Notes: a model not told the origin generated them from the sequence alone. Counted from the first letter of the stretch, positions 11,807-49,133 are shown. The stretch: DNA of 64,000 nucleotides from a virus (IMGVR_UViG_3300006143_000275); one strand, 5' to 3'. Numbers and translations are program-made.

Positions 11807-12249
11807 TTACCCCTCTTTTCTCCATAGTTCTACCGTGTATTGCTGGCCAAGAATCTTCTCAATGATTCCGAACACAACACCCCAGTTGCCTCCACCAAGA
11901 CCACATCCAATCTTGTATGGCATTGCAATCGTCTCGCCAGCAGGAACGATCTGTTTTAATTGGAGTAGACACTTTTCAAAAGCTGCATAGTCTGTGTACT
12001 GCCTTCCGTTATAACCGTACTGGTCTTGAGAAAACAGATTGCAAACAACCTGGGGATCAATATTCTTGCCATCAACAGGTGTGCGCCCTCATCGCACCTG
12101 ACCTTATACCATTTGTAAACTGTGGGGAATTTTGTCCTTATCTGCTTTGCGACGCCGCTTCCCATTTTCCCTTGGCAGTTCACTTGGTGGCAAATATAAT
12201 TTGATTTTGTAGAGAACAGGTCTCCATCAATTATTTTGATAGACATCAA
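11807..12249 (-). pseudogene. macro-domain (ADP-ribose binding/processing) gene split by a frameshift
   Basis: Frame A (11956-12249) gives the macro N-terminus IIDGDLFSTKSNYICHQVNCQGKMGSGVAKQI; frame +2 (11807-12088) gives NIDPQVVCNLF...IAMPYKIGCGLGGGNWGVVFGIIEKIL and ends 4 nt before the nadE start. Confidence 0.5.
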
Positions 12250-13772
12250 AATTCCCCTCCATGGAGATTCTGCCGAACCTCATCCAAGGTATAAATTTTG
12301 ATGAACTCCCCATTCTTGAAGACCACCCGTAATTCATTGTTCTCTTGAGCCTCAGCCCAAGTTAGGCCATCCTTATAGATGTAGTTATCACCGTTTTTGA
12401 TCACACGGCAGCAACCCCGCTGAGACTTCTTGAAGTGACCAGTGTCGGTCTTGGGATTCTTGAAAATCATGATGGGCTTGCCGTCTGCATCCTCGGCATA
12501 GGTGGCCTTAACGGCGATACCAAAGGTGTCACGGGTGTATGGTGCGTATGTCTTATTGACAACAGAGATACCGGAAACGGGATTGGGTTCACTTCGTTCC
12601 AAAGTCTCCAAGCACTGCATGGAGAAGGAACCGACGCCAAGGGAGACATTGTTAATGGCAAACCCGTTGGATTCCAGAATCTGATAGATTTGCTTGCATC
12701 GCTGGGGAGTAATGCTGTCACCATACAACGCCTTGACGTGCGGATTCAGCACTTTGAACCCCTTGCTGTTCACGGTGCCTCCAAAAATGTCCCACAGCTT
12801 GAACGCAGTCTTGGTCACGACCTCGACGGGGTCTCCACTGTCTCCACGGATAAGCAGACATCCATCGTGTGCCAGAATCTCGTCTTTGAGCTGCGGCAGG
12901 ATGTTGTCTACCAGATTCCAGTAATCGTAGCTGTCACTGACCATGGAGAAGTTCTGGTGAGGGTAAATCTCGGTCAGCAGACGGCGGATATGGGTGACCT
13001 CGTCACCGTCCATAGCGAAGTTGGAACACATCACGCTGTGTTCGGTGGACAAAGCGCCATAGGCTACCGGCTCCTTAGCACAGTCGCAGTGATAGTTGTC
13101 CTCCAGCCACAGGATTGCGGGAACAGTGGCGGTGTTCAGGAAGCTGAGACAGAAAGCGGCAGAACTTTTGGTGGCGCTCTCCACGCTCTCTTGACCACGC
13201 ATGGAAAAATCGCCAAGGAGTCTGGCGCGGACCACGCTGTCATCACAGGTGCGATCTGTAAACTCGTTGACGATTTGGCGGTAGCGATAGCCGACCTCGG
13301 CGGAAACTTGGGTGTGCCACATGGTGCAGGACAGCATGGTCTCAATGGAGTTCACCAGCCACACAAAGTTCGGATGGGTGTTGGAAATCTCAATTTGCGG
13401 CACCTTGATATTGGTACGCACACCCTCCGGCACGGCCCGAATCTCTAGGGGAAGATAGCCCAAGTCATGAAGAGCTTTCAGGCGCTTTTCTCCAACACCA
13501 TCGGTGTTGATGGTGGCGTTGAGAACCCGCTTATACTCGCTGAGGACATCCTCCCAGTCCTCTTGGAAGAAAAAGTGGTTGAAGGCATCAACGAGGTACT
13601 CCTTGATGAACGCCTGGAGGCCAAACATCGTGACCTTATCTGTGTCTCCCAGCCGGGTCATGCGGGGAGTGTAGTAGGAGACCATCTTGGTCAGGGTCTG
13701 CGGATACTGCTCTGCGTGGGCCGTCTTGTAAAAGTCCAGGCAAAGCAGTGGATTGTAGCAACAACCACTCAT
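12246..13772 (-). CDS. nadV: nicotinamide phosphoribosyltransferase (NAMPT/NadV)
   Basis: 508 aa; N-terminal LDFYKTAHAEQYPQ matches the NAMPT DSYK(V)THyKQYP signature; length typical. Confidence 0.8.
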   Translation of the reverse strand: MSGCCYNPLLCLDFYKTAHAEQYPQTLTKMVSYYTPRMTRLGDTDKVTMFGLQAFIKEYLVDAFNHFFFQEDWEDVLSEYKRVLNATINTDGVGEKRLKALHDLGYLPLEIRAVPEGVRTNIKVPQIEISNTHPNFVWLVNSIETMLSCTMWHTQVSAEVGYRYRQIVNEFTDRTCDDSVVRARLLGDFSMRGQESVESATKSSAAFCLSFLNTATVPAILWLEDNYHCDCAKEPVAYGALSTEHSVMCSNFAMDGDEVTHIRRLLTEIYPHQNFSMVSDSYDYWNLVDNILPQLKDEILAHDGCLLIRGDSGDPVEVVTKTAFKLWDIFGGTVNSKGFKVLNPHVKALYGDSITPQRCKQIYQILESNGFAINNVSLGVGSFSMQCLETLERSEPNPVSGISVVNKTYAPYTRDTFGIAVKATYAEDADGKPIMIFKNPKTDTGHFKKSQRGCCRVIKNGDNYIYKDGLTWAEAQENNELRVVFKNGEFIKIYTLDEVRQNLHGGEF

Positions 13773-16403: not shown

Positions 16404-16438
16404 ATTCGGAGGAACTTCTTTGAGCGTGTGAACGGTTA

Positions 16439-16474
16439 CCCTTGCGTTTCTCTGATTCACAATACAGAGTGCCC
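16439..16474. repeat. conserved hairpin motif copy D
   Basis: CCTTGCGTTTCTCTGATTCACAATACAGAGTGCCC. Confidence 0.5.
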
Positions 16475-16515
16475 TATGTACGCAGACTGTGGGCTAATAC
16501 GCTGCAAAATGATTA

Positions 16516-17594: not shown

Positions 17595-17669
17595 TGGTGA
17601 CCCGGACGGGAGTCGAACCCGCGTTACCAGAGTGAAGGTCTGGTGTCTTAACCGCTTGACTACCGGGCC
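17595..17669 (-). tRNA. tRNA-Glu (anticodon TTC)
   Basis: Cloverleaf read by eye; T-loop GGTTCGACTCC; encoded CCA. Confidence 0.6.
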
Positions 17670-17672
17670 GTA

Positions 17673-17748
17673 TGGTCTGAGTGGGGAGGATCGAACTCCC
17701 GGCCTCGTGATCCCAAATCACGCGCTCTGCCAACTGAGCTACACCCAG
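17673..17748 (-). tRNA. tRNA-Pro (anticodon TGG)
   Basis: Anticodon loop TTTGGGA; T-arm GGGAGTTCGATCCTCCC; CCA. Confidence 0.6.
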
Positions 17749-17752
17749 ATAT

Positions 17753-17919
17753 TGTGCGGGCGGGGATTTTCACCCCGCATAGGTAAGATTATGTACCTGC
17801 TACCGAGCTTGTCGCCCATCGGCTACTTCACCGAACCCAAACAGGAGGACAACGATGGACTCGAACCATTGTCTTACCCTACCTCTCGTTATAGCGTCTA
17901 CCTATTCCGCCACCGCACA
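17753..17919 (-). ncRNA. atypical tRNA-like element, about 167 nt, with a tRNA-Leu-type D-arm and a large internal insertion
   Basis: 5' TGTGCGG pairs perfectly with 3' CCGCACA; D-arm GTGGCGGAATAGGTAGACGC matches tRNA-Leu; internal T-arm-like GGACAACGATGGACTCGAACCATTGTC; no clean anticodon arm. Confidence 0.3.
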
Positions 17920-17935
17920 TTTTGTATTGTGTAGC

Positions 17936-17970
17936 TCTAAAAACAGGACTCCCGCAGGCGAGCGTCCCTG
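17936..17970 (-). terminator. rho-independent terminator (minus strand)
   Basis: Hairpin CAGGGACGCTCGCCTGCGGGAGTCCTG followed by TTTTT on the minus strand. Confidence 0.45.
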
Positions 17971-18039
17971 TAAACCTGCTACACTCGGTTTTGAGCGTGC
18001 CCATCCCGCAGGGCGGCGGGGTGCTCCGTGTACTTTGGA

Positions 18040-18073
18040 GCAAAGAAAAAGATCGTGCCGAGAACTACGGCAC
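18040..18073 (-). terminator. rho-independent terminator after tRNA-Gly (minus strand)
   Basis: Hairpin GTGCCGTAGTTCTCGGCAC then TCTTTTTCTTTG on the minus strand. Confidence 0.5.
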
Positions 18074-18075
18074 GC

Positions 18076-18151
18076 TGGAGTGAGAGACGGGACTTGAACC
18101 CGCAGCTTCCGACTTGGAAGGACGGCACTCTGCCAGTTGAGTTACTCCCAC
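18076..18151 (-). tRNA. tRNA-Gly (anticodon TCC)
   Basis: Anticodon loop CTTCCAA; T-arm GCGGGTTCAAGTCCCGT; CCA. Confidence 0.55.
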
Positions 18152-18154
18152 AGA

Positions 18155-18574
18155 TGGTGGAGCCGGCGGGAATCGAACCCGCGTCCGAAATTCCTACATG
18201 AGCAAGACCTTTTTACGCAATAGGTTTCCTTTTAGGTGGATGCCTTATGGCGGGGCACCAAGATGGAATCCAAATCTACCCCAGGGCGTACCAGTTAAGT
18301 ACACCTCCACCACCTTGTCTTTTTGAACAGATTACAAGGAAAACTGTTTTTCTGGCGTATCCTCGACCGCAGGTACTTACCCAGCCAGAGGTGTACCGTT
18401 TTGGAATCCTGCCGACAGTTAAGCGGCGACCCTCTCTGCCATGAAGGCGGCGAAAGCGGGATGGATCATAACAACACTCATATCATTGTCATTTCATTTT
18501 TTGTTTAGCCTTAAGGCGGTCTCTACCTGCGAATCTTACTCTCTCAGAACCCCGTCGAAACCTTTACGGCCCCG
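18155..18574 (-). ncRNA. ssrA: tmRNA (ssrA)
   Basis: 5' end GGGGCCGTAAAGGTTTCGACGGGG matches the tmRNA 5' consensus GGGGCUGAUUCUGGAUUCGACGGG; 3' end GGACGCGGGTTCGATTCCCGCCGGCTCCACCA matches the tmRNA tRNA-like 3' end; the termini pair as an acceptor stem; about 420 nt; internal short ORF ending VAA-TAA. Confidence 0.6.
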
Positions 18575-18677
18575 TAAAAGAGGCCCGGCGTATAGCCGGG
18601 CCGTTCCCCACATTGTTATAGACCGCATGGGTGCGCTGTCTTATTAAATACCATGTTTGCACGTTCCCCTTTCGGGG

Positions 18678-18753
18678 TGGAGCTGGTAACAGGAGTCGAA
18701 CCCGCGACACTCGGAGTACAAAACCGATGCTCTACCAACTGAGCTATACCAGC
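18678..18753 (-). tRNA. tRNA-Thr (anticodon TGT)
   Basis: D-arm GCTCAGTTGGTAGAGC; anticodon loop TTTGTAC; CCA. Confidence 0.55.
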
Positions 18754-18756
18754 AAA

Positions 18757-18832
18757 TGGAGCTGATGCACGGACTCGAACCGCGAACCTAAGCTTTACGA
18801 AAGCCTCGCTCTGCCATTAGAGCTACATCAGC
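18757..18832 (-). tRNA. tRNA-Thr (anticodon CGT)
   Basis: Anticodon stem AGGCT/AGCTT with loop TTCGTAA; T-arm CGCGGTTCGAGTCCGTG; CCA. Confidence 0.55.
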
Positions 18833-18836
18833 ATGT

Positions 18837-18911
18837 TGGCTGGGGTGACTGGATTCGAACCAGCGAATGAGGGAGTCAAAGTCCCTTGCCTTGCCGCTTG
18901 GCGACACCCCA
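18837..18911 (-). tRNA. tRNA-Gln (anticodon TTG)
   Basis: 5' U, 3-bp D-stem, anticodon loop CTTTGAC; CCA. Confidence 0.55.
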
Positions 18912-20190: not shown

Positions 20191-20636
20191 TGGATACCAC
20201 CCTTTCGTGAAAGTCTGGCGCAATACTTAAAACCTGTGTTTTATCCCATACATAATAGCCATACTGCATGGGATGGCAAAAGGACGCTGAACTCGGGATT
20301 TTCCACTACCTCTTATTTCAAATAAATACTCGGATCAGCGTCCTAAAGTCCTTGAAATACGCACTTTGTTGTTTGTGATCTGCATTATATCTCGGCAGGC
20401 TACGAGGAGGGCTCCCTGCATCCGGATACAGCTCCCGGTTACTGCTGTCATCTGGTTTGGAATGATGTCGTGTGTCTGTGGGTTCCTGACATCGGGTGCC
20501 GAACTCCTTGAGTCTCAGTGTGTTGGCGGGTTTGGTGACCTTTGTCCTGATGGCCCCTGTGCGGGTCGGCGCCTGAGCAGGTGGTCGTCGGCTGCCGCGG
20601 GATCTCTGATCGCACGCACTGCGGCCGCCAAGCCGT

Positions 20637-20683
20637 CATCCTCCACCCAACCATTCGTTACTCTGATTTACAATACAGAGTTT
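20637..20683. repeat. conserved hairpin motif copy A
   Basis: CATCCTCCACCCAACCATTCGTTACTCTGATTTACAATACAGAGTTT. Confidence 0.55.
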
Positions 20684-21298: not shown

Positions 21299-21552
21299 AA
21301 ACTTTGTAATCTACCATAAGGGATAGGAAGCTGGCCATGGTTTCCTCCAGAGAGGTGAGTCTGGGAATGTCATCTCGTGTGTTCCCGGCTGTCCGAACTG
21401 GTGTCAGGTTTCAGGAATTTTTGTGACGGAGTTCCTGCTGATTTCCTGGCGAAATGTGCAGTTCGGTAATAGTTCCGTTCTTCGTGATGTTGGTAAGGGT
21501 GTTTAGCATCTCCTGCTGCCGTCGCGGCCGGCAGCACTGCGCAGCCTGGCAG

Positions 21553-21601
21553 GCTCCCTTCTCCCAGCCATTCGTTACTCTGATTTACAATACAGAGTGC
21601 C
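21553..21601. repeat. conserved hairpin motif copy B
   Basis: CTCCCTTCTCCCAGCCATTCGTTACTCTGATTTACAATACAGAGTGCC. Confidence 0.55.
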
Positions 21602-21643
21602 TTTTGAGGAACAAAAGGCTATACATTACAAAATTTTGCTTAT

Positions 21644-22783
21644 TTATGCGGCCAAATCCTCATGGATGGTACGCATTACGTCCGTTTGATATTTTTCGTT
21701 GTTGTACTTGATGACCTCGTCAACATACTTTTCTTCAACCATCCGGTAGTAGTTGATAAGGCCGCGCAAAACCTGAACATCGTGCAGTTCCCAGACAATT
21801 CCGTTCTTACGGTCGAGGATGTAGTTGCTGATCATTGCACGAAAACGCTGCTTGTTCTTGTGACCGATGGTGATCTCATTGTCCTTATTGAGCATGAGCC
21901 CGAGGTTCCAATTACTGCCGGCTCTGGAACCATACCTCGTCTTCTCATCCTTGATCTTGAACGGCGCATGGAAATCATCCAGCGTCTGATTGATGAAGTC
22001 GATGACCTTATTGTAGTCAAACTCTCTCCGGCTTGAAATTAGAGAGTCGTCTGCGTATCTGGTGTAAACGAACGACTGCCCGTTAAAATCACGCAGGGTA
22101 TTGTATACCTTGTGATCAAGGGGGATCATCATCAGATTTGTGAGCATCGGAGAAATCGGCGTGCCCTGCGGCAATCCGCCATGAAGAAAACAGAGGTTGA
22201 GTGCCTTGTCCAGTGCTGCTCTGCCCCGTTCTGACTTGACAATCTCGCTGAACGGGAAAATCAAAGAGAGCGAATACCGAAGGAATACCAGCGTTGTGTC
22301 CCCAAAAAAGTTCGAGAAATCCGTCTTTAAGAACCAATGACTGTCATTCCTCTGGTGACGTTTGATGGCGTCAATGGTGGAACGATTCTTAACATAGGCA
22401 AAGGCGGAGGTGTGGTACAGCGCAAACATCTTGGTCTCAAACAAAGTCTTCAGATTCCGAAGCGCCGTCATCAGTTCTGGCACAGGGGCATTGATCTCAC
22501 GCAGGCCGCCGGACTTCTTCGGAATATGGAATGTGGTATAGAGGGCTTCTCTCGGAACGGCATACAGCTCGGCATTTTGTTCGCAAAAACTCTCCAGAGC
22601 GGAGACCATACCGGCGAAATCGAACCGATCCAGAAACTGTGGCTTGAGTCGCTGTGCGAAATGCGTTCTGGTATTGGTGCTGTTTGAAGTTATCATAGAC
22701 TGCATGTTGACCTCACCAGATATGATTTCCTCAAATGATATCTGATGGTATGCAGGCGATTGCATGACGGTTATGTATGGCAT
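21644..22783 (-). CDS. reverse transcriptase (retron / group II-like RT domain, standalone)
   Basis: RT motifs YTTFHIPKKSGGLREINAP, GLPQGTPISPMLTNLMM and YTRYADDSLIS (YxDD box); 379 aa; no maturase/endonuclease or RNase H extension. Confidence 0.8.
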   Translation of the reverse strand: MPYITVMQSPAYHQISFEEIISGEVNMQSMITSNSTNTRTHFAQRLKPQFLDRFDFAGMVSALESFCEQNAELYAVPREALYTTFHIPKKSGGLREINAPVPELMTALRNLKTLFETKMFALYHTSAFAYVKNRSTIDAIKRHQRNDSHWFLKTDFSNFFGDTTLVFLRYSLSLIFPFSEIVKSERGRAALDKALNLCFLHGGLPQGTPISPMLTNLMMIPLDHKVYNTLRDFNGQSFVYTRYADDSLISSRREFDYNKVIDFINQTLDDFHAPFKIKDEKTRYGSRAGSNWNLGLMLNKDNEITIGHKNKQRFRAMISNYILDRKNGIVWELHDVQVLRGLINYYRMVEEKYVDEVIKYNNEKYQTDVMRTIHEDLAA

Positions 22784-23082
22784 ATTTTTAATACCTCCTG
22801 ATGTCTGTATTCTGGTATACAGTAGGTTGAGGAATTCAGGATGCGATGGGTACTTGAGAGCTGGGACTGAGTGCGGGCTCGGTGGGTAATCTGGTGAGTG
22901 ATTTGCGGCGGTCCGATGGTTCTTGGGGTCGCCATCTGTCTTCCTGTTTGCTGTCCGTCACCTTTCTGGTCGAGATGTCAAGAGTTCTTTGCGTATTTGG
23001 AGCAGTAGAAAACAGTTTATTTATTACCTCTTGACCTCGGTGGCGGGCAGGCGCCTTCAGATTCCGCCTCCGGGCGGGGTGT

Positions 23083-23128
23083 CCCTTCTCCCAGCCATGC
23101 GCAACTCTGATTTACAATACAGAGCACC
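23083..23128. repeat. conserved hairpin motif copy C (start of the RT leader)
   Basis: TCCCTTCTCCCAGCCATGCGCAACTCTGATTTACAATACAGAGCACC. Confidence 0.55.
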
Positions 23129-23227
23129 CTCAGAATAACTCTGAAAGTAATGCAATACAGACTATATGGAAGGGGCAGCGGCAACCAAAGCCACTGCCCC
23201 TATAGAACTATCGTAAAACGTGATGCC

Positions 23228-23899
23228 TTACACGGCGATCACGTCGAATTCAAAAGCATCCACAAGAATCATCTTGCGGAGTTTCTCGCCCTTCACGAAG
23301 TTGATGAAGTTGGCTACGCCGTAGGCAACGATCGTTCGCACCGTCGGAACAACCGACAGTGTGATATTGCAGGCAGAAACGGGCGTCGCCTCTTTTGCCT
23401 CATCATGAGAGAACGCCATGCTGTCGATAAAGTTCTCCACCATCTTCTTGTCGCTCCAGTCAGCGGCATAGTGCTGGGCGTCCGTCAGCCGCATCCGGAA
23501 GTCGAACATCCCCTTGACGAACGTGTTCTCCTTACAGGAGGTGGCGATCTCCCGGCGGAGGTCAATGTTGTCCACCGCCAGGAACACATAACCGGAGAGA
23601 CGCTGGCCTGTCCAGCCCTCTTTGACCAGCTTCAGATCGGGGGCGCAGTCCGGATTGATCTCGGTGAGATACTCAGCCAAAGCATCAACCTTGGCCTTGC
23701 CGATATCCGTATTCCGGAACATCTGGTTGGCAATGTTGTGGGCTTCTACGGTATCGAAGTCATACAGCGTGATTTTCGTAATGCCGAACCGCACCAGATT
23801 CTCAGCGACCGTGGAACCAATCGCTCCACAGCCGATGATATGAATCCGCGATTCGAGCATATCCGGCTTGAAGAATTCGTAGGACTTCGCCAAATCCAT
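23228..23899 (-). CDS. ThiF/MoeB-family E1-like adenylyltransferase
   Basis: Rossmann IHIIGCGAIGSTVAENLVRFGITKITLYDFDTVE; 223 aa. Confidence 0.7.
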   Translation of the reverse strand: MDLAKSYEFFKPDMLESRIHIIGCGAIGSTVAENLVRFGITKITLYDFDTVEAHNIANQMFRNTDIGKAKVDALAEYLTEINPDCAPDLKLVKEGWTGQRLSGYVFLAVDNIDLRREIATSCKENTFVKGMFDFRMRLTDAQHYAADWSDKKMVENFIDSMAFSHDEAKEATPVSACNITLSVVPTVRTIVAYGVANFINFVKGEKLRKMILVDAFEFDVIAV

Positions 23900-23916
23900 T
23901 GTTTGTCTCTCCTTTC

Positions 23917-24789
23917 TTACTGTCCGAGGTATAGGCGGTCATAGGGATCGTCTTCGTCGAATTGGTAGTCGGAAAAGGACCGGCCAATGCCGGTATCACC
24001 TCCGTTTACCTTCGGTTTTGTTTTGACTCCGACGACGCTCGCACCGGCCGTCGCCGCCGGCGTTGTTGTCTGACTGATGGGTGTGACGACCCGCGTCTGC
24101 GTCTGCTGATAGGTTCCCTGAAAACCGGTGACAGGCTTATAGGTTCTGTTGGTGACGATCTCCTTGGCGCTGCTGATGAAAGCCTGAAGATCCACGCCGA
24201 CATCTCCAATATACACATCAACATCTGCCGTGTCGTACAGGGTGTTGTTCTTCAGATCGAAGATGCGGACAAAGTGCTCGTACCGCTTGTTCCAGATCAT
24301 GAAGATGTAGTAGTCGTCATCGGAGATTTGCTCCAGAATCTTCTCCTGGTGAGTTGTGTCCACACCAGAGGGAGACACGCCCATATTGACGTGGCTGTGT
24401 CCTTGCATCCGGATGTTATTGAACACATCATCATCAAAGGAGTAAAGCCACGTCTGGTACGCCTCTTGATCGGTGTTGACCGTTGCGCCGGTAACAACCT
24501 GCGGGTATACCAAAATGTCGGTGATGTGGAAGATGGACGGATCCTGCTCATCACGGTGAACCACGCCGTGCCACGCGACCTCGTCGTTGAACTGCTGAAT
24601 GAGCGAGTTCATCTTGGCGAAGGCAATCGAGGACAGGTAGACAGTTGCCCGGTCGTCATCGCCCTCCCACTTGAACGTCCGGCTGTATTCCAGCTTTCCG
24701 TCAAACATCTTGGTGGACTTCACCTTTGCGATGAACTCCTCCTGAATTTTTTGCAGCAGCTCGTCCGTGAGCTTAATGGGCTTACTCAT
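23917..24789 (-). CDS. JAB/MPN (JAMM) metalloprotease-domain protein
   Basis: JAMM motif GHSHVNMGVSPSGVD (HxHx7Sx2D) with an upstream Glu; start taken at MSKPIKLTDELL. Confidence 0.65.
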   Translation of the reverse strand: MSKPIKLTDELLQKIQEEFIAKVKSTKMFDGKLEYSRTFKWEGDDDRATVYLSSIAFAKMNSLIQQFNDEVAWHGVVHRDEQDPSIFHITDILVYPQVVTGATVNTDQEAYQTWLYSFDDDVFNNIRMQGHSHVNMGVSPSGVDTTHQEKILEQISDDDYYIFMIWNKRYEHFVRIFDLKNNTLYDTADVDVYIGDVGVDLQAFISSAKEIVTNRTYKPVTGFQGTYQQTQTRVVTPISQTTTPAATAGASVVGVKTKPKVNGGDTGIGRSFSDYQFDEDDPYDRLYLGQ

Positions 24790-26275
24790 GGCTCTCCTCC
24801 TGTTCTTTTTCTTTCTTCGCCTTGACATCTTGTTCCTCCAACCACAATACGGCCTCAAACGGCGTCTTGGTCGTACCGTCGGGCATTTCGATTACCTTAC
24901 CGATCCTGTTCGAGAACAGCAACTGCGTCATCTTGCCGGTTGTTGCGCTCTCCTGAACATTGACGCTCTTTGCCGACTGAACACAAGCAGCTACCGCGCC
25001 GACATAATCCCGGTTACGCATAGATTGGCGAATTGTCGCCTCATTTCCACCAAGGCAGTGAAACGCCTGGATGTGCTGGTTCGGCGTGTGATCCATGATG
25101 ATATCCGACGGGAAATCGTATCCGCTAATCCCGGCGTACCTGCCGTTATCGAAGTTCAGCGAATATGCGGCGCAAATGCGAATCTTCATCGTCTCTTTGA
25201 CGAAAATCTCCGTCATCAGACGCTTAATGCGCTCTACCGTCATATTTTCGTTGTCACGATATTCATAGATGTAGCTACGGTTATTCTGAATGACGGACTC
25301 CGCTGCGTCAGGATCGAAGTTTGCAACCGTGGTGGTTACAATGAACTTGATTTCGCCATTGTATACGCTGACCAGATGCAGCGAATTGTTGCATAGGAAG
25401 TAGTCCAAAAGCTCGCTGCTCTCCGCGCCGCCTCCGTGTGTGATTTTATCGACCAGACCGCACTCCTGCGTTCTCAGGTCGTCCATCTGCTGGTAGTAAT
25501 TGGAGAAAGTGCTCTCCAAATCACGCATCCTGCGATCCATATCGTTGATCTGGCTGCGGACGGACTCCAGCTTCCGGCGGTCAAAGTGTGTTTCAAAGCC
25601 GGTCAACTGATTGCGGATAACCTGTGACCGGAAGTCAAACCGCTTGGCGAACTCCTGAATCTTCGTTTCATAGCTGGGGGCGTAACGCTTTGTGAGCGTC
25701 TTGACGATCTCAATCTCCTCGTCAGTCATCGGATTGGACTCGAAGTACCACGGGAAGTAGCGGGAAATCAGAGACTCCAGCATGTGCCACCGCTTCATGT
25801 TCATCTTTTCCGTGAAGATGATGGTGTTGCGGTACTCCTCGTTCACATAGACCTTGGCGCGGAACTTTGCGTCGCTCTCAATCCATGCGGACAGATCCGC
25901 CAGGAGCTTGTATCCAGAGACTGTCTTTGGAACACCTTCAACGAGTTTCTCGAAGCAGGTTGTGTTGCTCTCGTCGCTCCCCTCAAATGAATGGATGAGC
26001 AAAATGCCGGTTGAACCATCCATAATCGGAGTTCGGTTAAAGAAAGCCCTGACGCAGTCTCTCGGAGACGAGCCAGATAACTGCCCGGAACTGTAGTCTG
26101 TGCTTTTATATCGCAGTGTGATTGACTCCTCTTTCGGAACCCTGCTATACAGCAAAGCTCTCAAGGTCGCAACGAACGACTCGTCATTGCGGAACTTATC
26201 TCCGCCGATATTCGGGAATACGGTCGATGCGATCTCATTGGTGAGAGTCAGACCAGTGATTTCTTTTGAGAACAT
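24782..26275 (-). CDS. large hypothetical protein (497 aa) in the E1/JAB operon; possible E2-like region
   Basis: C-terminal DHTPNQHIQAFHC loosely resembles the UBC HPN...C catalytic motif (weak). Confidence 0.35.
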   Translation of the reverse strand: MFSKEITGLTLTNEIASTVFPNIGGDKFRNDESFVATLRALLYSRVPKEESITLRYKSTDYSSGQLSGSSPRDCVRAFFNRTPIMDGSTGILLIHSFEGSDESNTTCFEKLVEGVPKTVSGYKLLADLSAWIESDAKFRAKVYVNEEYRNTIIFTEKMNMKRWHMLESLISRYFPWYFESNPMTDEEIEIVKTLTKRYAPSYETKIQEFAKRFDFRSQVIRNQLTGFETHFDRRKLESVRSQINDMDRRMRDLESTFSNYYQQMDDLRTQECGLVDKITHGGGAESSELLDYFLCNNSLHLVSVYNGEIKFIVTTTVANFDPDAAESVIQNNRSYIYEYRDNENMTVERIKRLMTEIFVKETMKIRICAAYSLNFDNGRYAGISGYDFPSDIIMDHTPNQHIQAFHCLGGNEATIRQSMRNRDYVGAVAACVQSAKSVNVQESATTGKMTQLLFSNRIGKVIEMPDGTTKTPFEAVLWLEEQDVKAKKEKEQEESHE

Positions 26276-26364
26276 AGCCTGCTCCTTTTCTGAAAGATTT
26301 AAGGGCTCCCACCGCTCAGATGGGAGCCCTCGGCCCTATGTATAGGGGACTGCGGTGGGTCTGA

Positions 26365-26619
26365 TCAGGCGTTGTCAGCCTTGACGACGGAGATCAGGAA
26401 GCACTTGTCGTGGCCGGGCTCGCCGGTGTAGCCCATCTCGGCGAAGGTCTGATCCAGCTTGGCACCGGTGACGGTCTCGCCGTCCAGGGACAGCATACCC
26501 ACGGAGTAGTCGATGCCGGTCTCGCCCTGGGTGCTCTCCAGAGCCTGGCGGATGGTGGTGTTGGGGTTCAGGTTGAAACGGGCGCGCTTCAGGTTGTTAC
26601 CGATAGTGACGTTAATCAT
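26365..26619 (-). CDS. small protein (84 aa), possible beta-grasp/Ubl-like
   Basis: Alternating strand/helix pattern MINVTIGNN...MLSLDGETVTGAKL reminiscent of ThiS/MoaD; C-terminus is not GG. Confidence 0.3.
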   Translation of the reverse strand: MINVTIGNNLKRARFNLNPNTTIRQALESTQGETGIDYSVGMLSLDGETVTGAKLDQTFAEMGYTGEPGHDKCFLISVVKADNA

Positions 26620-26706
26620 GATTCATTCTCCTTCTTATTCAAAAAATTTTGGGTTGACAGGTTTGTGTTGCCGGGCGGGGATTCCCCCGCCCGGACTTAG
26701 CCATCC

Positions 26707-27108
26707 TTAGATGACGGTGATGTTAGCCATGACCTCGGCGTTCTCAGCCTCGACCTCGGCCAGGGCATCGTCGATGCCGGCCTCCACCTTGTTCAGGCGA
26801 ACCACGGCCTTGCCGACCAGCTTGGCAGCATAGTCGATCACGTTCTCAGTCCCAGCGGGGACGGGAATCGTGATGGTGGCCAGCTTCGCCTCGTCGTGGG
26901 TCTCGGAGGCGAAAGTCGCGCCGTTCTGGTTGATGCTGCCGGCAGCAGCGGCGGTCTCCACGCGGAAGATTTCCTCCTTCTTACCGTTCTCATCGGTCTC
27001 GATGAGACGAAGAGCCTTCGGGCGGTACTCCTCCAGCGTCTTCAGAGCCTTGAGGCTCTTGCCGCTGGTGACGATGATCGCGTCACCAGCAATGGTGATC
27101 TTTGCCAT
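26707..27108 (-). CDS. hypothetical protein (start at MAKITIAGD)
   Basis: Ribosome-binding site AAAGGATG upstream; the listed ORF extends through a structured leader. Confidence 0.35.
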   Translation of the reverse strand: MAKITIAGDAIIVTSGKSLKALKTLEEYRPKALRLIETDENGKKEEIFRVETAAAAGSINQNGATFASETHDEAKLATITIPVPAGTENVIDYAAKLVGKAVVRLNKVEAGIDDALAEVEAENAEVMANITVI

Positions 27109-27219
27109 ACTGATACATCCTTTCTGTTCGGGCTTTGCCCTTAATATGTACCCCGTTTGCTCACCCCCCCCCATCGGGGGCTCCCCAGCCTGAACCACGA
27201 GGAGGTGGGGCCGATCAGG

Positions 27220-27253
27220 CCGCAAAGAACCCCGTAACTTTTCAGCTACGGGG
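27220..27253 (-). terminator. rho-independent terminator (minus strand)
   Basis: CCCCGTAGCTGAAAAGTTACGGGG followed by TTCTTTG. Confidence 0.5.
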
Positions 27254-27707: not shown

Positions 27708-28022
27708 TCACCTCCCGATGATAGCCGCAAAACTTTCGTCGGAGATGTCCTCTTGCTCTTCCCCATAGAAAGTGCATTTCATGTAGTCGTCCGCATCGTT
27801 CTTTGACCCATATCTCACAGTATCGCCTCTGATATAGTAGCAGAAATTACCACGGTGTTTCTCCCAGTAATTTTTCTTCAGAGGACTCTCGCCGGTCGGG
27901 TATTTGATGCCAAACGCGACTAATATTGCGGCAAATTCACGCTCCAAATCTGCTTCTGGGCAATTTACAGCAACATAGCTGTTTTCTCCCAGCATTGATG
28001 TATCAAATGGCCTGTCCCACAT
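27708..28022 (-). CDS. small protein (paralog of 28028-28384), tail ...DESFAAIIGR
   Basis: Shared CPxxDL...KCTFYG core with the next ORF. Confidence 0.4.
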   Translation of the reverse strand: MWDRPFDTSMLGENSYVAVNCPEADLEREFAAILVAFGIKYPTGESPLKKNYWEKHRGNFCYYIRGDTVRYGSKNDADDYMKCTFYGEEQEDISDESFAAIIGR

Positions 28023-28027
28023 TTGTC

Positions 28028-28384
28028 TTACCTCCCTTGATTACCCCCCCCCGCAGAGATAATTGCTTCAAATCCGGCATCGGAGATTTCAAAGTCGGGC
28101 TCCACGCCGTAAAATGTGCATTTGATATAATTTCTGTATGCGCTGTCTGAGTAACATGTTCTGCTCCCATATTTCATTGTTCCTCGCGGTTCAATGCGAT
28201 AACAGGTTTCTTCTCTGTTCTCATGCCAATGAGTTTCTCCAACTGGCTCATCACCATACCATTTTATATCGTTTTCTTCTAAAAACGAAAACAGTTCATC
28301 TACCAAGTCTTTGTCAGGACAATGGATGATGACACCGTTGAATAGCATTGAAATCTCAAGCGGAGTGTCTGGCCAATCTACCAT
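28028..28384 (-). CDS. small protein, tail ...DAGFEAIISAGGGNQGR through a G9 tract
   Basis: G9 (plus-strand C-run 28044-28052) encodes GGG; two fewer G give ...ISAGG-stop. Confidence 0.4.
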   Translation of the reverse strand: MVDWPDTPLEISMLFNGVIIHCPDKDLVDELFSFLEENDIKWYGDEPVGETHWHENREETCYRIEPRGTMKYGSRTCYSDSAYRNYIKCTFYGVEPDFEISDAGFEAIISAGGGNQGR

Positions 28385-28836: not shown

Positions 28837-28922
28837 TGGTGTCGATGATGGGATTTGAACCCATACGGCGTTAGAGCCAACAGGGTTTGAGCCTGTCATG
28901 TCTACTATTCCATCACATCGAC
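28837..28922 (-). tRNA. tRNA-Leu (anticodon CAA), type II
   Basis: Anticodon loop CTCAAAC; long variable arm; T-arm ATGGGTTCAAATCCCAT; CCA. Confidence 0.5.
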
Positions 28923-28925
28923 ATA

Positions 28926-29012
28926 TGGTGTGGGCGGCGGGAATTGAACCCGCACATCGAACCCGATATAGAGGCTTAAACTCCATGTGTCTTCCAATTC
29001 CACCACGCCCAC
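28926..29012 (-). tRNA. tRNA-Leu (anticodon TAA), type II
   Basis: Anticodon loop TTTAAGC; variable arm with ATCG/CGAT stem; T-arm GCGGGTTCAATTCCCGC; CCA. Confidence 0.5.
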
Positions 29013-31267: not shown

Positions 31268-31343
31268 TGGTGGAGATAGTCGGGATCGAACCGGCGACCT
31301 CCTGCTTGCAAGGCAGGCGCTCTCCCATCTGAGCTATATCCCC
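31268..31343 (-). tRNA. tRNA-Ala (anticodon TGC)
   Basis: GGGGATATAGCTCAGATGGGAGAGCGCCTGCCTTGCAAGCAGGAGGTCGCCGGTTCGATCCCGACTATCTCCACCA. Confidence 0.6.
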
Positions 31344-31348
31344 ATATT

Positions 31349-31434
31349 AGAGAGTGGTGGGAATCGAACCCACGCAGCGCATATCCGGTTGACAGGCATG
31401 TATCTGCCCCGCTCTGCCACTGAGCTACACTCTC
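31349..31434 (-). tRNA. tRNA of uncertain identity (about 86 nt) with an apparently 8-nt anticodon loop and a long variable region
   Basis: Canonical acceptor, D-arm (GCTCAGTGGCAGAGC) and T-arm (GTGGGTTCGATTCCCAC); best anticodon stem GGCAG/CTGTC encloses ATACATGC; no encoded CCA. Confidence 0.35.
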
Positions 31435-34346: not shown

Positions 34347-34371
34347 ATTGCCCACTCTGCGTTTCTGAACC

Positions 34372-34401
34372 GGGCTTGTGACCGGCTATGGCCGCATTAG
34401 G
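34372..34401. repeat. 30-bp repeat R1 (GGGCTTGTGACCGGCTATGGCCGCATTAGG) followed by an 8-bp-stem hairpin
   Basis: A second copy at 35764-35793 is followed by a different hairpin. Confidence 0.4.
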
Positions 34402-34487
34402 CAGGCGGCCCGCTACTTTGCAGGCCGCCTATCGGAAAGGAAAGAACCGCTGGATGTAACCTACGGCATTGGGAAGCGCCTATGGCG

Positions 34488-35715: not shown

Positions 35716-35763
35716 CTAAAACCTCCCTCTCGTTGCGGGTTTCTCACTCTGCATTTCTCATGC

Positions 35764-35793
35764 GGGCTTGTGACCGCCAATGGCTGCATTAAG
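35764..35793. repeat. 30-bp repeat R2
   Basis: GGGCTTGTGACCGCCAATGGCTGCATTAAG followed by GCCGTCCGGAAATTCTGGACGGC. Confidence 0.4.
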
Positions 35794-36042
35794 AAGCCGT
35801 CCGGAAATTCTGGACGGCGACCCACGCTACTGAGGTTTCTTATTTCGTAAGTGTGCGTGTAGCTTAGTCCGTATCAATTCATAAACTAAACTATCGGATT
35901 TTCCCGACTTTCTACCCACTGCTGGGTCATCCCCTCAGACCAAGGAATGGGGACGCCTCCCAATCCCTTCCGTATCTCGGTACTCTTTTCACGATACGGT
36001 ATGCCGCGTAAAGCCCGTCGCGGTCAGCTTTGCCATGTGGTT

Positions 36043-36115
36043 TAGCGTGGACCGGGCTTGAACCGGCGACACACGGATTATCAATCCGCAGCTCTACCTA
36101 CTGAGCTACCACGCC
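36043..36115 (-). tRNA. tRNA-Ile (anticodon GAT)
   Basis: GGCGTGGTAGCTCAGTAGGTAGAGCTGCGGATTGATAATCCGTGTGTCGCCGGTTCAAGCCCGGTCCACGCT; no encoded CCA. Confidence 0.5.
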
Positions 36116-36326: not shown

Positions 36327-37171
36327 TAATCCCCCTATGCAAATGAACCGCTATGATTTTTACCACGAGGCCAGCCTCCACCTCGTTCAACGCCGCCAAC
36401 CTCCGAACACGGCGCACTGGCCAGATGTTACCTTAAAACCCTTCTGGGCATGGATACAGAAGCACCCTCGAATGTGGCGACAACGAGAGAGTGAGTAGCT
36501 GCGATAGCACACCTATCGCAATCCAGATGCAAACCCCTATTGCAGCACACATCGCAGGAGTAAGAGAAATTCTTTCTTGCGTGGCCGATGGATACAGCTT
36601 CATGCTGGAGCTCAACGCCGCGCTGCTCAAACTTGGTCATCGTATCACCCTCTCATATTCGATTTTGGTTTGAAACCTGATGGCGGAACAGCATACAGTT
36701 CCATTACCCTCAGCTCAACAGTTCACTTGAAGCAAATCGAGGGAGTTTAGCCTGTGAACCCGGCAACATGGGTGACTCGAACGCGGCCCCTATATGCCTG
36801 TTCCGCCGACCGCCCTATTGGGCGGTTTCGTCGCAATTTTCAGCGACTCGTCAGGGCGGCTATATGCCGACTACTTACTGCCGGAAACCTTCTTGCCCTT
36901 CTTCTTGGGAGCGGGCGGGACATACTTCGGATTAGCGGAGCAATATCTGTTTCCGCAGGGCTTCTCCTGCCCGCATGTCTCCTTACAAGAATAATTCGCC
37001 ATAGATTTCCTCCGTTCATTTTTTGATTTGTGAACCTCAGCAGACAGTATTCCATCCGCGGACGGGCAAAAGCCCGTTTCGCCGTCATTACGGCTCATCA
37101 GCGCGGCTATCAAATGGGCATAAAAAAGACCCTCTGGGTCGAAACCTCAGAGAGTCCTTTTATACGCCTGT

Positions 37172-37989: not shown

Positions 37990-38126
37990 ACAAAACCTCC
38001 TCCTGGCCTTCAGGCCGTAAGTCAAAACCTTTTGCCCTCTCTGCGTTTACACGGACTTGAGACCGTTAGCGGACAACGTCCGCCAGTCGCATTAGGCGCG
38101 GAGGTAAAACCTCCGCTGTGCCGCAA

Positions 38127-38990: not shown

Positions 38991-39731
38991 AACGTAACCT
39001 CCTAATAAGATTTTCTATGGGCAAGCCCATAATGAAGCCCTGGAACGAAGCCGCTCCAGGGCTCGATATAGGTTTGCACTCCCTCTGGTGACTTCTGCTC
39101 TGCGCTCAAGTCCACGGGACGTAAAGACGCCCGCACCACTTGTCGCAGTATTCACCGAAGTGCGCGGCATTTCAACCGCTCACCATTGGGAGAGAAAAAT
39201 TCACGTTATCATGCTATCAAATCCACTCCGGCCAACTATTCCGCTCGCTGTACTAACTCCCTTAGAGCCTTCCGGCGGCGATGTGCCACGCAACGCGCAA
39301 CCCTCCTTGAGAACTGCGACGCCTTTTAAGCATAGTCACAAAGCTGCTTTATAGCTGAGCCATCCTGAACCGTCAAGCACTTATCCACCCACACGTTTCC
39401 ATCACGTTTGCAGTTGGAGCGGAACCAACTGATTGCCGAGAACTCAATACTGCCCGCGTTCAGTACCCGCGCACTGGGAGCCTAACTCTCCCAATTTTTG
39501 GCTGGCCTTCTCTTGGGACGGTTGGAGCCGTCACATGTTGCAAGAGTACACTTCTTCTGATGGCAGAAGTACCCCTTGAGCAAGCGTGGGATGCCCTCAA
39601 GGTGGCGCTGAGATACCCCTCTGCATTACAGGCTTGGGACTGACCGGCCAATACCCATAAGGGATTGACTGGGCTGCATTGGTATCTTGTTTTTTTTGGT
39701 GGGGCGGTGCTGTGCCGTTCGCCCTACATAT

Positions 39732-49059: not shown

Positions 49060-49133
49060 TCGCGGAGTCGTCTAATGGTAGGACGCCTGGTTCATGCCCA
49101 GGAAATCAGAGTTCGAGTCTCTGCACCGCAACC
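49060..49133 (+). tRNA. tRNA-Met (anticodon CAT) with initiator-like C1-A72 mismatch
   Basis: 5' CGCGGAG / 3' CACCGCAACCA; anticodon loop TTCATGC; T-arm CAGAGTTCGAGTCTCTG. Confidence 0.5.

Follow-up and report, generated by a model that had tools for sequence, protein, structure and literature searches.

Ubiquitin-like conjugation in bacteria, as in Bil, Bub and the Cap2/Cap3 branch of the cyclic-oligonucleotide-based anti-phage signaling system (CBASS), has hitherto been described as anti-phage immunity. What, then, is such a pathway doing in the genome of a phage? The question is raised by IMGVR_UViG_3300006143_000275, a viral stretch of 64,000 nucleotides (nt), which we call the window. 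On its minus strand, positions 23228-27108 hold five co-oriented genes, here named A-B-C-D-E, and all of their open reading frames (ORFs) are present at the positions given by an earlier, sequence-only reading. That reading had proposed a phage-borne operon beside a reverse transcriptase (RT), and the surroundings agree: terminase, portal and other phage families are matched in the window, and a retron-like RT gene starts 445 nt downstream of the cassette. On balance, and judging from its sequence, we think that the region probably encodes a complete, phage-owned pathway for conjugating a ubiquitin-like protein (Ubl), and that this pathway is a core module of SPbeta-like prophages of gut Clostridia.

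Candidate E1, E2 and JAB components

Gene E had been read as a ThiF-type E1, and the family searches bear this out. Pfam ThiF matches residues 14-126 with E = 1.6e-26 (93.4 bits against a gathering score of 28.1), and the nucleotide-binding half matches Uba1 (5.5e-12), MoeB, TcdA, Uba5 and Cap2 (1.8e-9) in the Protein Data Bank (PDB). Across 64 orthologues the GxGxxG loop and Cys177 are conserved, and G23, G25, G28, D47, D49, D110 and R115 are invariant, giving the ATP-site, ribose and DNxxxR features of the E1 superfamily. By these features gene E is a minimal E1-like enzyme with a single adenylation domain, presumably a homodimer by analogy with ThiF and MoeB.

Gene D carries the full E...HxH(x7)S(x2)D motif of JAB/JAMM metallopeptidases. 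Residues E70, H131, S132, H133, S141 and D144 do not vary among 68 orthologues, in keeping with its earlier assignment. Scans of A, B, C and D with Pfam, NCBIfam, PHROGs and PADLOC identified no family save a weak PADLOC JAB match for D (E = 0.0039), which has no Pfam match; an alignment with Rpn11, spanning the Glu and the HxH...S..D block, gives E values of 0.0045-0.03. The protein consists of an N-terminal extension, the JAB domain and a low-complexity C-terminal tail, and its family comprises 2,271 matches.

A UBC-like C-terminus had been proposed for the 497-amino-acid (aa) product of gene C. Its structure model (predicted local distance difference test score, pLDDT, 91) divides into an N-terminal alpha/beta domain (1-225), a 54-residue helix that forms a coiled coil (227-280) and, at the C-terminus, a UBC/RWD-like domain, which runs from a helix through two strands, a helical insert, two further strands and a loop to three helices. 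This loop, which follows strand 4, holds the most conserved motif of the family, (H/Y)xPNxHIxxxxC(L/M)G, in which P398, N399, H401, C407 and G409 show little or no variation; H401 and C407 are retained even in the most divergent orthologues. The spacing from Asn399 to Cys407, PNxH(x5)C, equals the Asn-Cys spacing of the E2 motif HPN(x7)C. When a profile of this domain was aligned by hhalign with four canonical E2 sequences, the motif fell in register with YHPNINSNGSICLD at E = 0.16, which we take as a lead only. Pfam E2 or RWD models match none of 50 family members, profile searches of C and of its C-terminal domain alone against PDB sequences returned chance-level matches only, and Foldseek with the C model against the PDB found nothing significant (nucleotidyltransferase-like matches, at a probability of ~0.1, were not used). 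From the modeled fold and the motif, without significant sequence similarity, we consider it quite likely that the C-terminal domain of C is E2-like.

A HMMER search with the C profile retrieved representatives of 2,426 clusters formed at 50% identity, of which 1,160 scored below 1e-30. These ~2,400 protein clusters lack Pfam, NCBIfam and PHROGs annotation. The family of gene C is large and unannotated, and it belongs to the core of a phage lineage rather than to a sporadic island. Partial copies also occur a few kb upstream of the cassette: L075 encodes a lone E2-like paralogue in which HPN is present and the Cys at the catalytic position is absent, and L049 a lone copy of the N-terminal domain.

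The candidate modifier and its partner

Gene B had been put forward as a beta-grasp candidate that does not end in Gly, and this stands: it is an operon-encoded Ubl with a beta-grasp fold, and its last residues are ...VVKADNA. Its orthologues share a conserved K-(A/S)-D-(N/G)-(A/G) tail followed by 0-3 variable residues. The commonest tail is ...KADNA; extended forms are DNAA, DNAAA, DNAGQ, DNATSK, DNAR, DNATR and DNALAA, and a minority carry Gly (DGGCC, DGGSN, DGGIQ, DGGRQ, DGARK). A terminus of small residues that is conserved while the extensions beyond it are dispensable resembles that of Ubl precursors, and the GG variants tie the NA tail of B to the classical GG tail. The suggestion that the true Ubl might be one of the GG-tailed proteins of a small-protein family in the same genome is not upheld, since B itself has a conserved, processed-looking tail. 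Two paralogous small proteins of 104 and 118 aa, which share a ...KCTFYG...ISD..F.AII C-terminal region and match no family, may be the GG-tailed proteins meant; no link between them and the cassette was found.

In L056/L057, L072 and L073, B and A are fused in frame, with ...KADNA running directly into A(Y/E)IK (for example, into AYIKIAG). Tandem arrays occur too, L073 reading A, B-A, B-A, B and L081 reading B, A, A, B. Through these fusions and arrays the copy numbers of the Ubl and of A co-vary, and the fusions link A functionally to B. They also require a peptidase to free the terminus of B, an obvious task for the JAB; taken with the conserved tail and its extra residues, they argue that B is a Ubl processed by the JAB.

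Gene A always opens the cassette. The sequence-only reading had its ORF right and its length slightly wrong, as the protein has 133 aa from the ATG and not 135. Searches of Pfam, NCBIfam, PHROGs and the PDB found no match for A, a profile search against PDB sequences giving chance-level matches only, and it has no detectable relatives outside its own family. G+C content at third codon positions (GC3) is 0.82 in A and 0.88 in B versus 0.62-0.73 in C, D, E and the RT gene, 0.70 in the putative capsid gene and 0.50-0.73 in the rest of the window. This codon bias suggests that A and B are very highly expressed relative to the enzymes, and the hairpins that follow both genes are consistent with this; the one after A may act as an attenuator or stabilize the mRNA. 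A is the best candidate for a substrate or obligatory partner of the Ubl.

The genes are closely spaced: 87 nt separate A from B, 89 nt B from C and 17 nt D from E, while C and D overlap by 8 nt. A consensus scan called no promoter-like site inside the cassette. It likewise called no canonical terminator at the stable, GC-rich hairpins after A, B and E, which lack a clear U-tract. The terminator previously placed after the genes is thus no more than a hairpin (z -5.2).

The cassette is a core module of a phage lineage

The operon had been recommended for a search in related phages. We collected related loci from IMG/VR by alignment of C (79) and by RT (61), from GTDB genomes (16) and from two metagenome look-ups (3), on contigs of 40-150 kb. 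The order A-B-C-D-E recurs in ~140 loci from viruses and metagenome-assembled genomes (MAGs); every locus long enough keeps it, while the identity of C falls from 98% to ~26%. The ThiF match of E, the invariant JAMM residues of D and the recurrence of one order in ~140 independent loci together show that the five-gene set is not a chance assembly.

The GTDB matches are Clostridia MAGs (Oscillospiraceae, Acutalibacteraceae, Ruminococcus), and the TerL of the window is 45% identical to SPbeta YonF. None of 50,697 phage records matched the region by megablast; tblastn with C matched a sole GenBank phage record, the unannotated scaffold MT835544.1, which carries the whole cassette, in unchanged order, and the RT gene. 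In the window, the cassette sits within a long run of phage genes that share its orientation, together with tRNAs, a transfer-messenger RNA (tmRNA), ribozymes and a gene for nicotinamide phosphoribosyltransferase (NAMPT). The element belongs to an SPbeta-like prophage lineage of gut Clostridia, of which the cassette is a core module.

A proposed pathway and its alternatives

From the gene set, the folds and motifs, their conservation, the tail variants and the fusions, we infer the following route. The JAB peptidase D would trim the residues beyond the ...K-A-D-N-A (or ...D-G-G) tail of B and, where B and A are fused, cut B from A. The single-domain E1 would adenylate the C-terminal carboxylate of B, which would next be held, probably, as a thioester on Cys177 of E and be transferred by transthioesterification to Cys407 in the E2-like domain of C. 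Because no E3 is encoded, we assign the choice of target to C, whose N-terminal domain and coiled coil would supply both this and dimerization. B would then be ligated to an amine of the target, and D could reverse the reaction, making the tagging reversible. A and B would be stoichiometric components, as their extreme codon bias and the hairpin after each gene suggest.

We think that this pathway more likely serves the infection cycle of the phage itself, or counter-defense, than defense of the host. This preference rests on the core status and fixed position of the cassette, on the co-oriented block that it shares with NAMPT, tRNAs, tmRNA and ribozymes, and on the codon bias of A and B. Neither of the two findings that had been named as fatal to a conjugation pathway was made: the partner proteins show a beta-grasp and a probable UBC-like fold, and no sulfur-carrier synthase lies nearby.

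Several points weigh against the proposed pathway. B is mostly Ala-terminated, not Gly-terminated, and we know of no E1 that activates an Ala terminus for conjugation. An invariant Lys was looked for in A and none was found, the best conserved being K3 (89%) and K44 (87%), so that A may not be a substrate. Finally, all loci come from one phage lineage, and shared descent could explain part of the conserved order.

Could the cassette instead be a Bil-like anti-phage defense that a prophage carries for superinfection exclusion, tagging the structural proteins of competitors during residence? Clostridia MAG contigs contain the element, a temperate SPbeta-like prophage, and the adjacent retron-like RT is of a type typical of defense systems. 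However, the cassette has a fixed position in all related loci examined instead of lying in a variable island, and its place is within the co-oriented phage block. In addition, the codon bias of A and B exceeds that of the putative capsid gene, which suggests massive lytic expression, and PADLOC system models match nothing beyond generic E1 and JAB domains. We judge a defensive role unlikely, though a serious contender.

If B were activated for a small-molecule outcome, then it would serve as a thiocarboxylate sulfur carrier of the ThiS/MoaD/CysO kind or undergo a modification of the penultimate Asn of the MccB/PaaA type, and the JAB would only mature the carrier. The conserved Asn beside the terminus of B does recall MccA, and MccB (3.5e-6) and PaaA (8.9e-6) are among the PDB matches of E. 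In NCBIfam, E is matched best by sulfur-carrier adenylyltransferases of the ThiF/MoeB kind, none of which comes close to its cut-off, and clusters that pair a JAB with ThiS/MoaD in sulfur assimilation are known (PMC1779556). Yet the neighborhood lacks a rhodanese, a cysteine desulfurase, a synthase of the ThiG/MoaE/CysM type and a transporter, and family scans of neighboring ORFs found no sulfur-transfer or cofactor gene within ~10 kb of the cassette. The tail Asn is swapped for Gly in the DGG and DGA variants, and such a pathway needs neither a UBC/RWD-like protein with an invariant Cys nor an abundant partner fused to B. This outcome seems very unlikely.

A slightly slimmer chance attaches to a processing or chaperone module without transfer, in which B is a ubiquitin-like chaperone of A, comparable to ubiquitin-ribosomal-protein fusions or to the lambda tail-assembly Ubl and JAB, the JAB releases it and C is a non-catalytic RWD/UEV scaffold. 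Against this, an E1 is kept throughout, with its ATP-binding and catalytic residues intact and its Cys conserved, His401 and Cys407 of C persist at all levels of divergence, and most genomes encode B on its own, leaving its conserved tail free.

The conjugation pathway can also be taken further. A widespread lineage of gut phages may run its own ubiquitination-like pathway during infection, coupled to the RT, in which a minimal E1, a giant E2 acting as substrate selector and an Asn-Ala modifier tag host immune or proteolytic factors, or protein A; we hold this to be possible but doubtful. If true, it would be the first viral-offense counterpart of Bil and CBASS conjugation in prokaryotes, and its chemistry would accept a terminus other than Gly. 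Should host proteins be the targets, the pathway would provide a prokaryotic parallel to the hijacking of ubiquitination by eukaryotic viruses. The E1 of the cassette is very compact, its candidate E2 includes a putative targeting domain, and its natural series of Ubl tails (NA, GG and GA, with and without extensions), together with the Ubl-partner fusions, lends itself to clean biochemical tests.

Reverse transcriptase, ribozymes and other neighbors

The RT matches RVT_1 (E = 2.6e-17), the NCBIfam retron St85 family (2e-51, below its cut-off) and PADLOC RT_II-A (6e-47). Gene E is followed by the RT in every sufficiently long locus but L067 and L093, and 0-3 genes are inserted between them; in the divergent L142-L146 the gap between E and RT is 240 nt and the RT is 46% identical. 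We rejected its assignment to a diversity-generating retroelement (DGR). DGR RTs carry another motif than the QGxxxSP of retron and group II RTs, which is present here (LPQGTPISP), and the best models are of the retron type. A retron-like msr/msd was looked for upstream of the RT: the conserved piece of spacer is an intergenic element of ~100-140 nt that recurs after other genes and is not RT-specific. Copies also occur in L003, L004, L005 and L084, and Rfam has no match for it.

The constant neighborhood of a retron-like RT suggests a possible link of reverse transcription to protein tagging. That the cassette and the RT work as a single unit, in which the Ubl machinery modifies or regulates the RT or a cDNA-bound protein, or the reverse, is consistent with the RT following E in all but two sufficiently long loci, L142-L146 included, but we consider it a remote prospect, given the 1-3 unrelated genes between E and RT in many loci, the strong hairpin that closes the cassette in the window, the element in the E-RT spacer that is found after other genes too, and a linkage that synteny within a single phage lineage could by itself explain.

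Between the terminator hairpin of the preceding gene and gene A, immediately upstream of the latter, lies a hepatitis delta virus (HDV)-like ribozyme with the nested double pseudoknot P1/P1.1/P2/P3, an L3 of the CCUCCUCG type and G1 at the predicted cleavage site. Rfam HDV_ribozyme scores it at 34.8 bits (gathering score 50; E = 0.0012 for the local stretch), and a covariance model built from related copies at 49 bits. That model finds the same site upstream of the cassette in ~30 loci, and finds copies elsewhere in these phages. A set of 44 copies shows compensatory pairs in P1, the first pair being G-U or G-C, and cognate P2 helices average 5.0 bp versus 3.9 bp for non-cognate ones. A second class, with a hairpin inserted in L3, occurs in L008, L014, L027, L048, L054 and L077, and further HDV-like copies precede other genes, five of them in L062 alone. 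In L023, L053 and L058 the ribozyme is replaced, ~130-60 nt upstream of gene A, by a tRNA-like sequence (GGTGCCGTAGTCAAGCGG...CCGGCATCACCA), which suggests that any RNA 5'-processing signal is what matters there. The 5' end of the cassette mRNA is probably made by RNA self-cleavage.

Other RNAs and genes of the same surroundings are collected in Table 1. Matches to twister-P1, hammerhead and RAGATH-4, all in one minus-strand block, indicate a phage unusually rich in small self-cleaving ribozymes. There are 14 tRNA matches, most of them around the tmRNA. The NAMPT gene lies in the same gene block as the cassette; phage NAD+ salvage genes have been linked to counter-defense.

Table 1. Positions of the cassette genes, their motifs and neighboring features, in window coordinates unless a locus is named.
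Feature	Position	Strand	Remarks
Gene A	27108..26707	-	133 aa from ATG; acidic; family unassigned
Gene B	26619..26365	-	84 aa; ends ...VVKADNA; ubiquitin-like beta-grasp protein
Gene C	26275..24782	-	497 aa; contains DHTPNQHIQAFHC
E2-like (UBC/RWD fold) domain of C, putative	24866..25420	-	residues ~286-470; fold and motif
Putative catalytic Cys407 of C	25055-25057	-	codon; motif TPNQHIQAFHCLG
Gene D	24789..23917	-	from ATG; 290 aa; JAB/JAMM metallopeptidase; contains HSHVNMGVSPSGVD
JAMM motif of D	24358-24399	-	H131-D144; conserved residues
Gene E	23899..23228	-	223 aa; ThiF/MoeB-type adenylyltransferase; contains GCGAIG
Retron-like RT	22783..21644	-	445 nt downstream of cassette
Hairpin after gene A	26671..26694	-	GC-rich, 10 bp, no U-tract; centroid -24.4 kcal/mol, z -2.7
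Hairpin after gene B	26301..26331	-	13 bp; -33 kcal/mol for the stretch, z -3.4
Hairpin after gene E	23171..23201	-	12 bp, z -5.2; marks cassette end
HDV-like ribozyme	27143..27223	-	directly 5' of gene A; predicted cleavage just 5' of G27221
Ribozyme at the same position	L001, L004, L006, L007, L010, L028, L039-L041, L047, L049, L063, L064, L068, L075, L082, L085, L087, L090, L093, others		
B-A fusions and arrays	L056/L057 6282-6902; L072 5040-5738; L073 4399-6811; L081 4962-6511		
Lone E2-like paralogue of C	L075 3110-3739		
Lone N-terminal domain of C	L049 4716-5411		
Paralogous small proteins	27708-28022; 28028-28384	-	104 aa; 118 aa
Repeated intergenic element	23030-23170; 21536-21633; 20624-20681; 16438-16480	-	after gene E; RT; a 192-aa gene; another gene
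NAMPT gene	12246-13772	-	PHROG 448, 1e-156
Twister-P1 matches (four)	34349-34403; 35741-35795; 38033-38098; 39613-39685	-	41-57 bits, gathering score 67
Type III hammerhead match	36820-36876	-	28.7 bits
RAGATH-4 match	39068-39202	-	73 bits, gathering score 104
tmRNA	18155-18573	-	96 bits
tRNA regions	17598-18911, 28840-29012, 31271-31434, 36043-36115 (-); 49061-49131 (+)		

Comparison with known systems

A search of the full-text literature found no description of such a cassette, and its nearest relatives share only parts of it. The Bil operon is ordered BilA-B-C-D, that is, Ubl-E2-JAB-E1 (PMC11601596), the order proposed for the cassette, and the two would have the same four roles and JAB pre-processing in common (PMC11601596, PMC10557695). 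BilD, however, is a pseudo-dimeric E1 of the form IAD-AAD-CYS (PMC10557695), whereas the cassette E1, at 223 aa and one domain, has no room for an IAD or a CYS insertion of ~80 aa. The putative E2 of the cassette occupies the C-terminal third of a 497-aa protein that also has an N-terminal domain and a coiled coil, the Ubl mostly ends in Ala where Bil has a C-terminal Gly exposed by a deubiquitinase (DUB), there is an extra, abundant partner A, and the setting is a phage core module, not a bacterial defense island. The likeness to Bil and Cap2/Cap3 that had been noted is therefore one of order and logic and does not extend to membership: the cassette is not a Bil member, as it has neither an IAD-AAD-CYS E1 nor a C-terminal Gly, both of which define Bil.

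Gene E finds its best PADLOC matches in Cap2-type E1-E2 models (1e-20), and, as in CBASS, a JAB partner is present and the E1 is presumably a homodimer. The PADLOC matches cover only residues 11-86 of E, ~70 residues of nucleotide-binding fold. The cassette has neither a CD-NTase nor an E2-E1 fusion, and it has a dedicated Ubl, whereas CBASS conjugates the cyclase itself. Bub (6E/DUF6527) operons likewise encode diverged Ubl, E1, E2 and peptidase components, with Ubl fusions that need JAB cleavage (PMC11601596). In Bub, however, E1 and E2 lack the catalytic Cys and form oxyester intermediates, and a DUF6527 serine protease is encoded; in the cassette, E conserves Cys177 and C conserves Cys407, and Pfam scans of the cassette and its neighbors gave no DUF6527 match.

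PRTRC, class 6d of Iyer, Burroughs and Aravind and found in conjugative elements, resembles the cassette as a mobile-element system with a Ubl, a JAB with an N-terminal extension, a small ThiF, an E2-like protein and uncharacterized proteins (PMC1779556). The NCBIfam PRTRC A/B/C/D/E/F models match no protein of the window, genes A-D having no match at E <= 0.1, PRTRC_ThiF scores E at 35.6 bits against a cut-off of 144.75, and ParB is absent. Moreover, the E2 of class 6d has a conserved His after the Cys, and the His of the cassette lies 6 residues before it. In a ThiF-based search of a plasmid collection for a PRTRC locus, no PRTRC-annotated match was among the matches listed, and a Ralstonia match was an unrelated TcdA-like gene.

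With ThiF/ThiS and MoeB/MoaD the cassette shares a single-domain adenylyltransferase of ~220-250 aa, a Cys ~60 residues past the catalytic Asp and a small beta-grasp partner. It differs from these sulfur-carrier pairs in having an E2-like protein and a JAB, in the absence of a GG terminus from most B proteins and in having no sulfur donor or cofactor synthase; ThiG, ThiH, MoaE, CysM and rhodanese are all missing from the neighboring ORFs. The best equivalog for gene E, PRK08644, reaches 79 bits where its cut-off is 159, and all ThiF/MoeB equivalogs fall far below their cut-offs. What sets the cassette apart from each of these systems is that it is phage-encoded and combines a minimal E1, a large multidomain E2-like protein and an Ala-terminated Ubl with a dedicated, abundant partner and a co-conserved RT.

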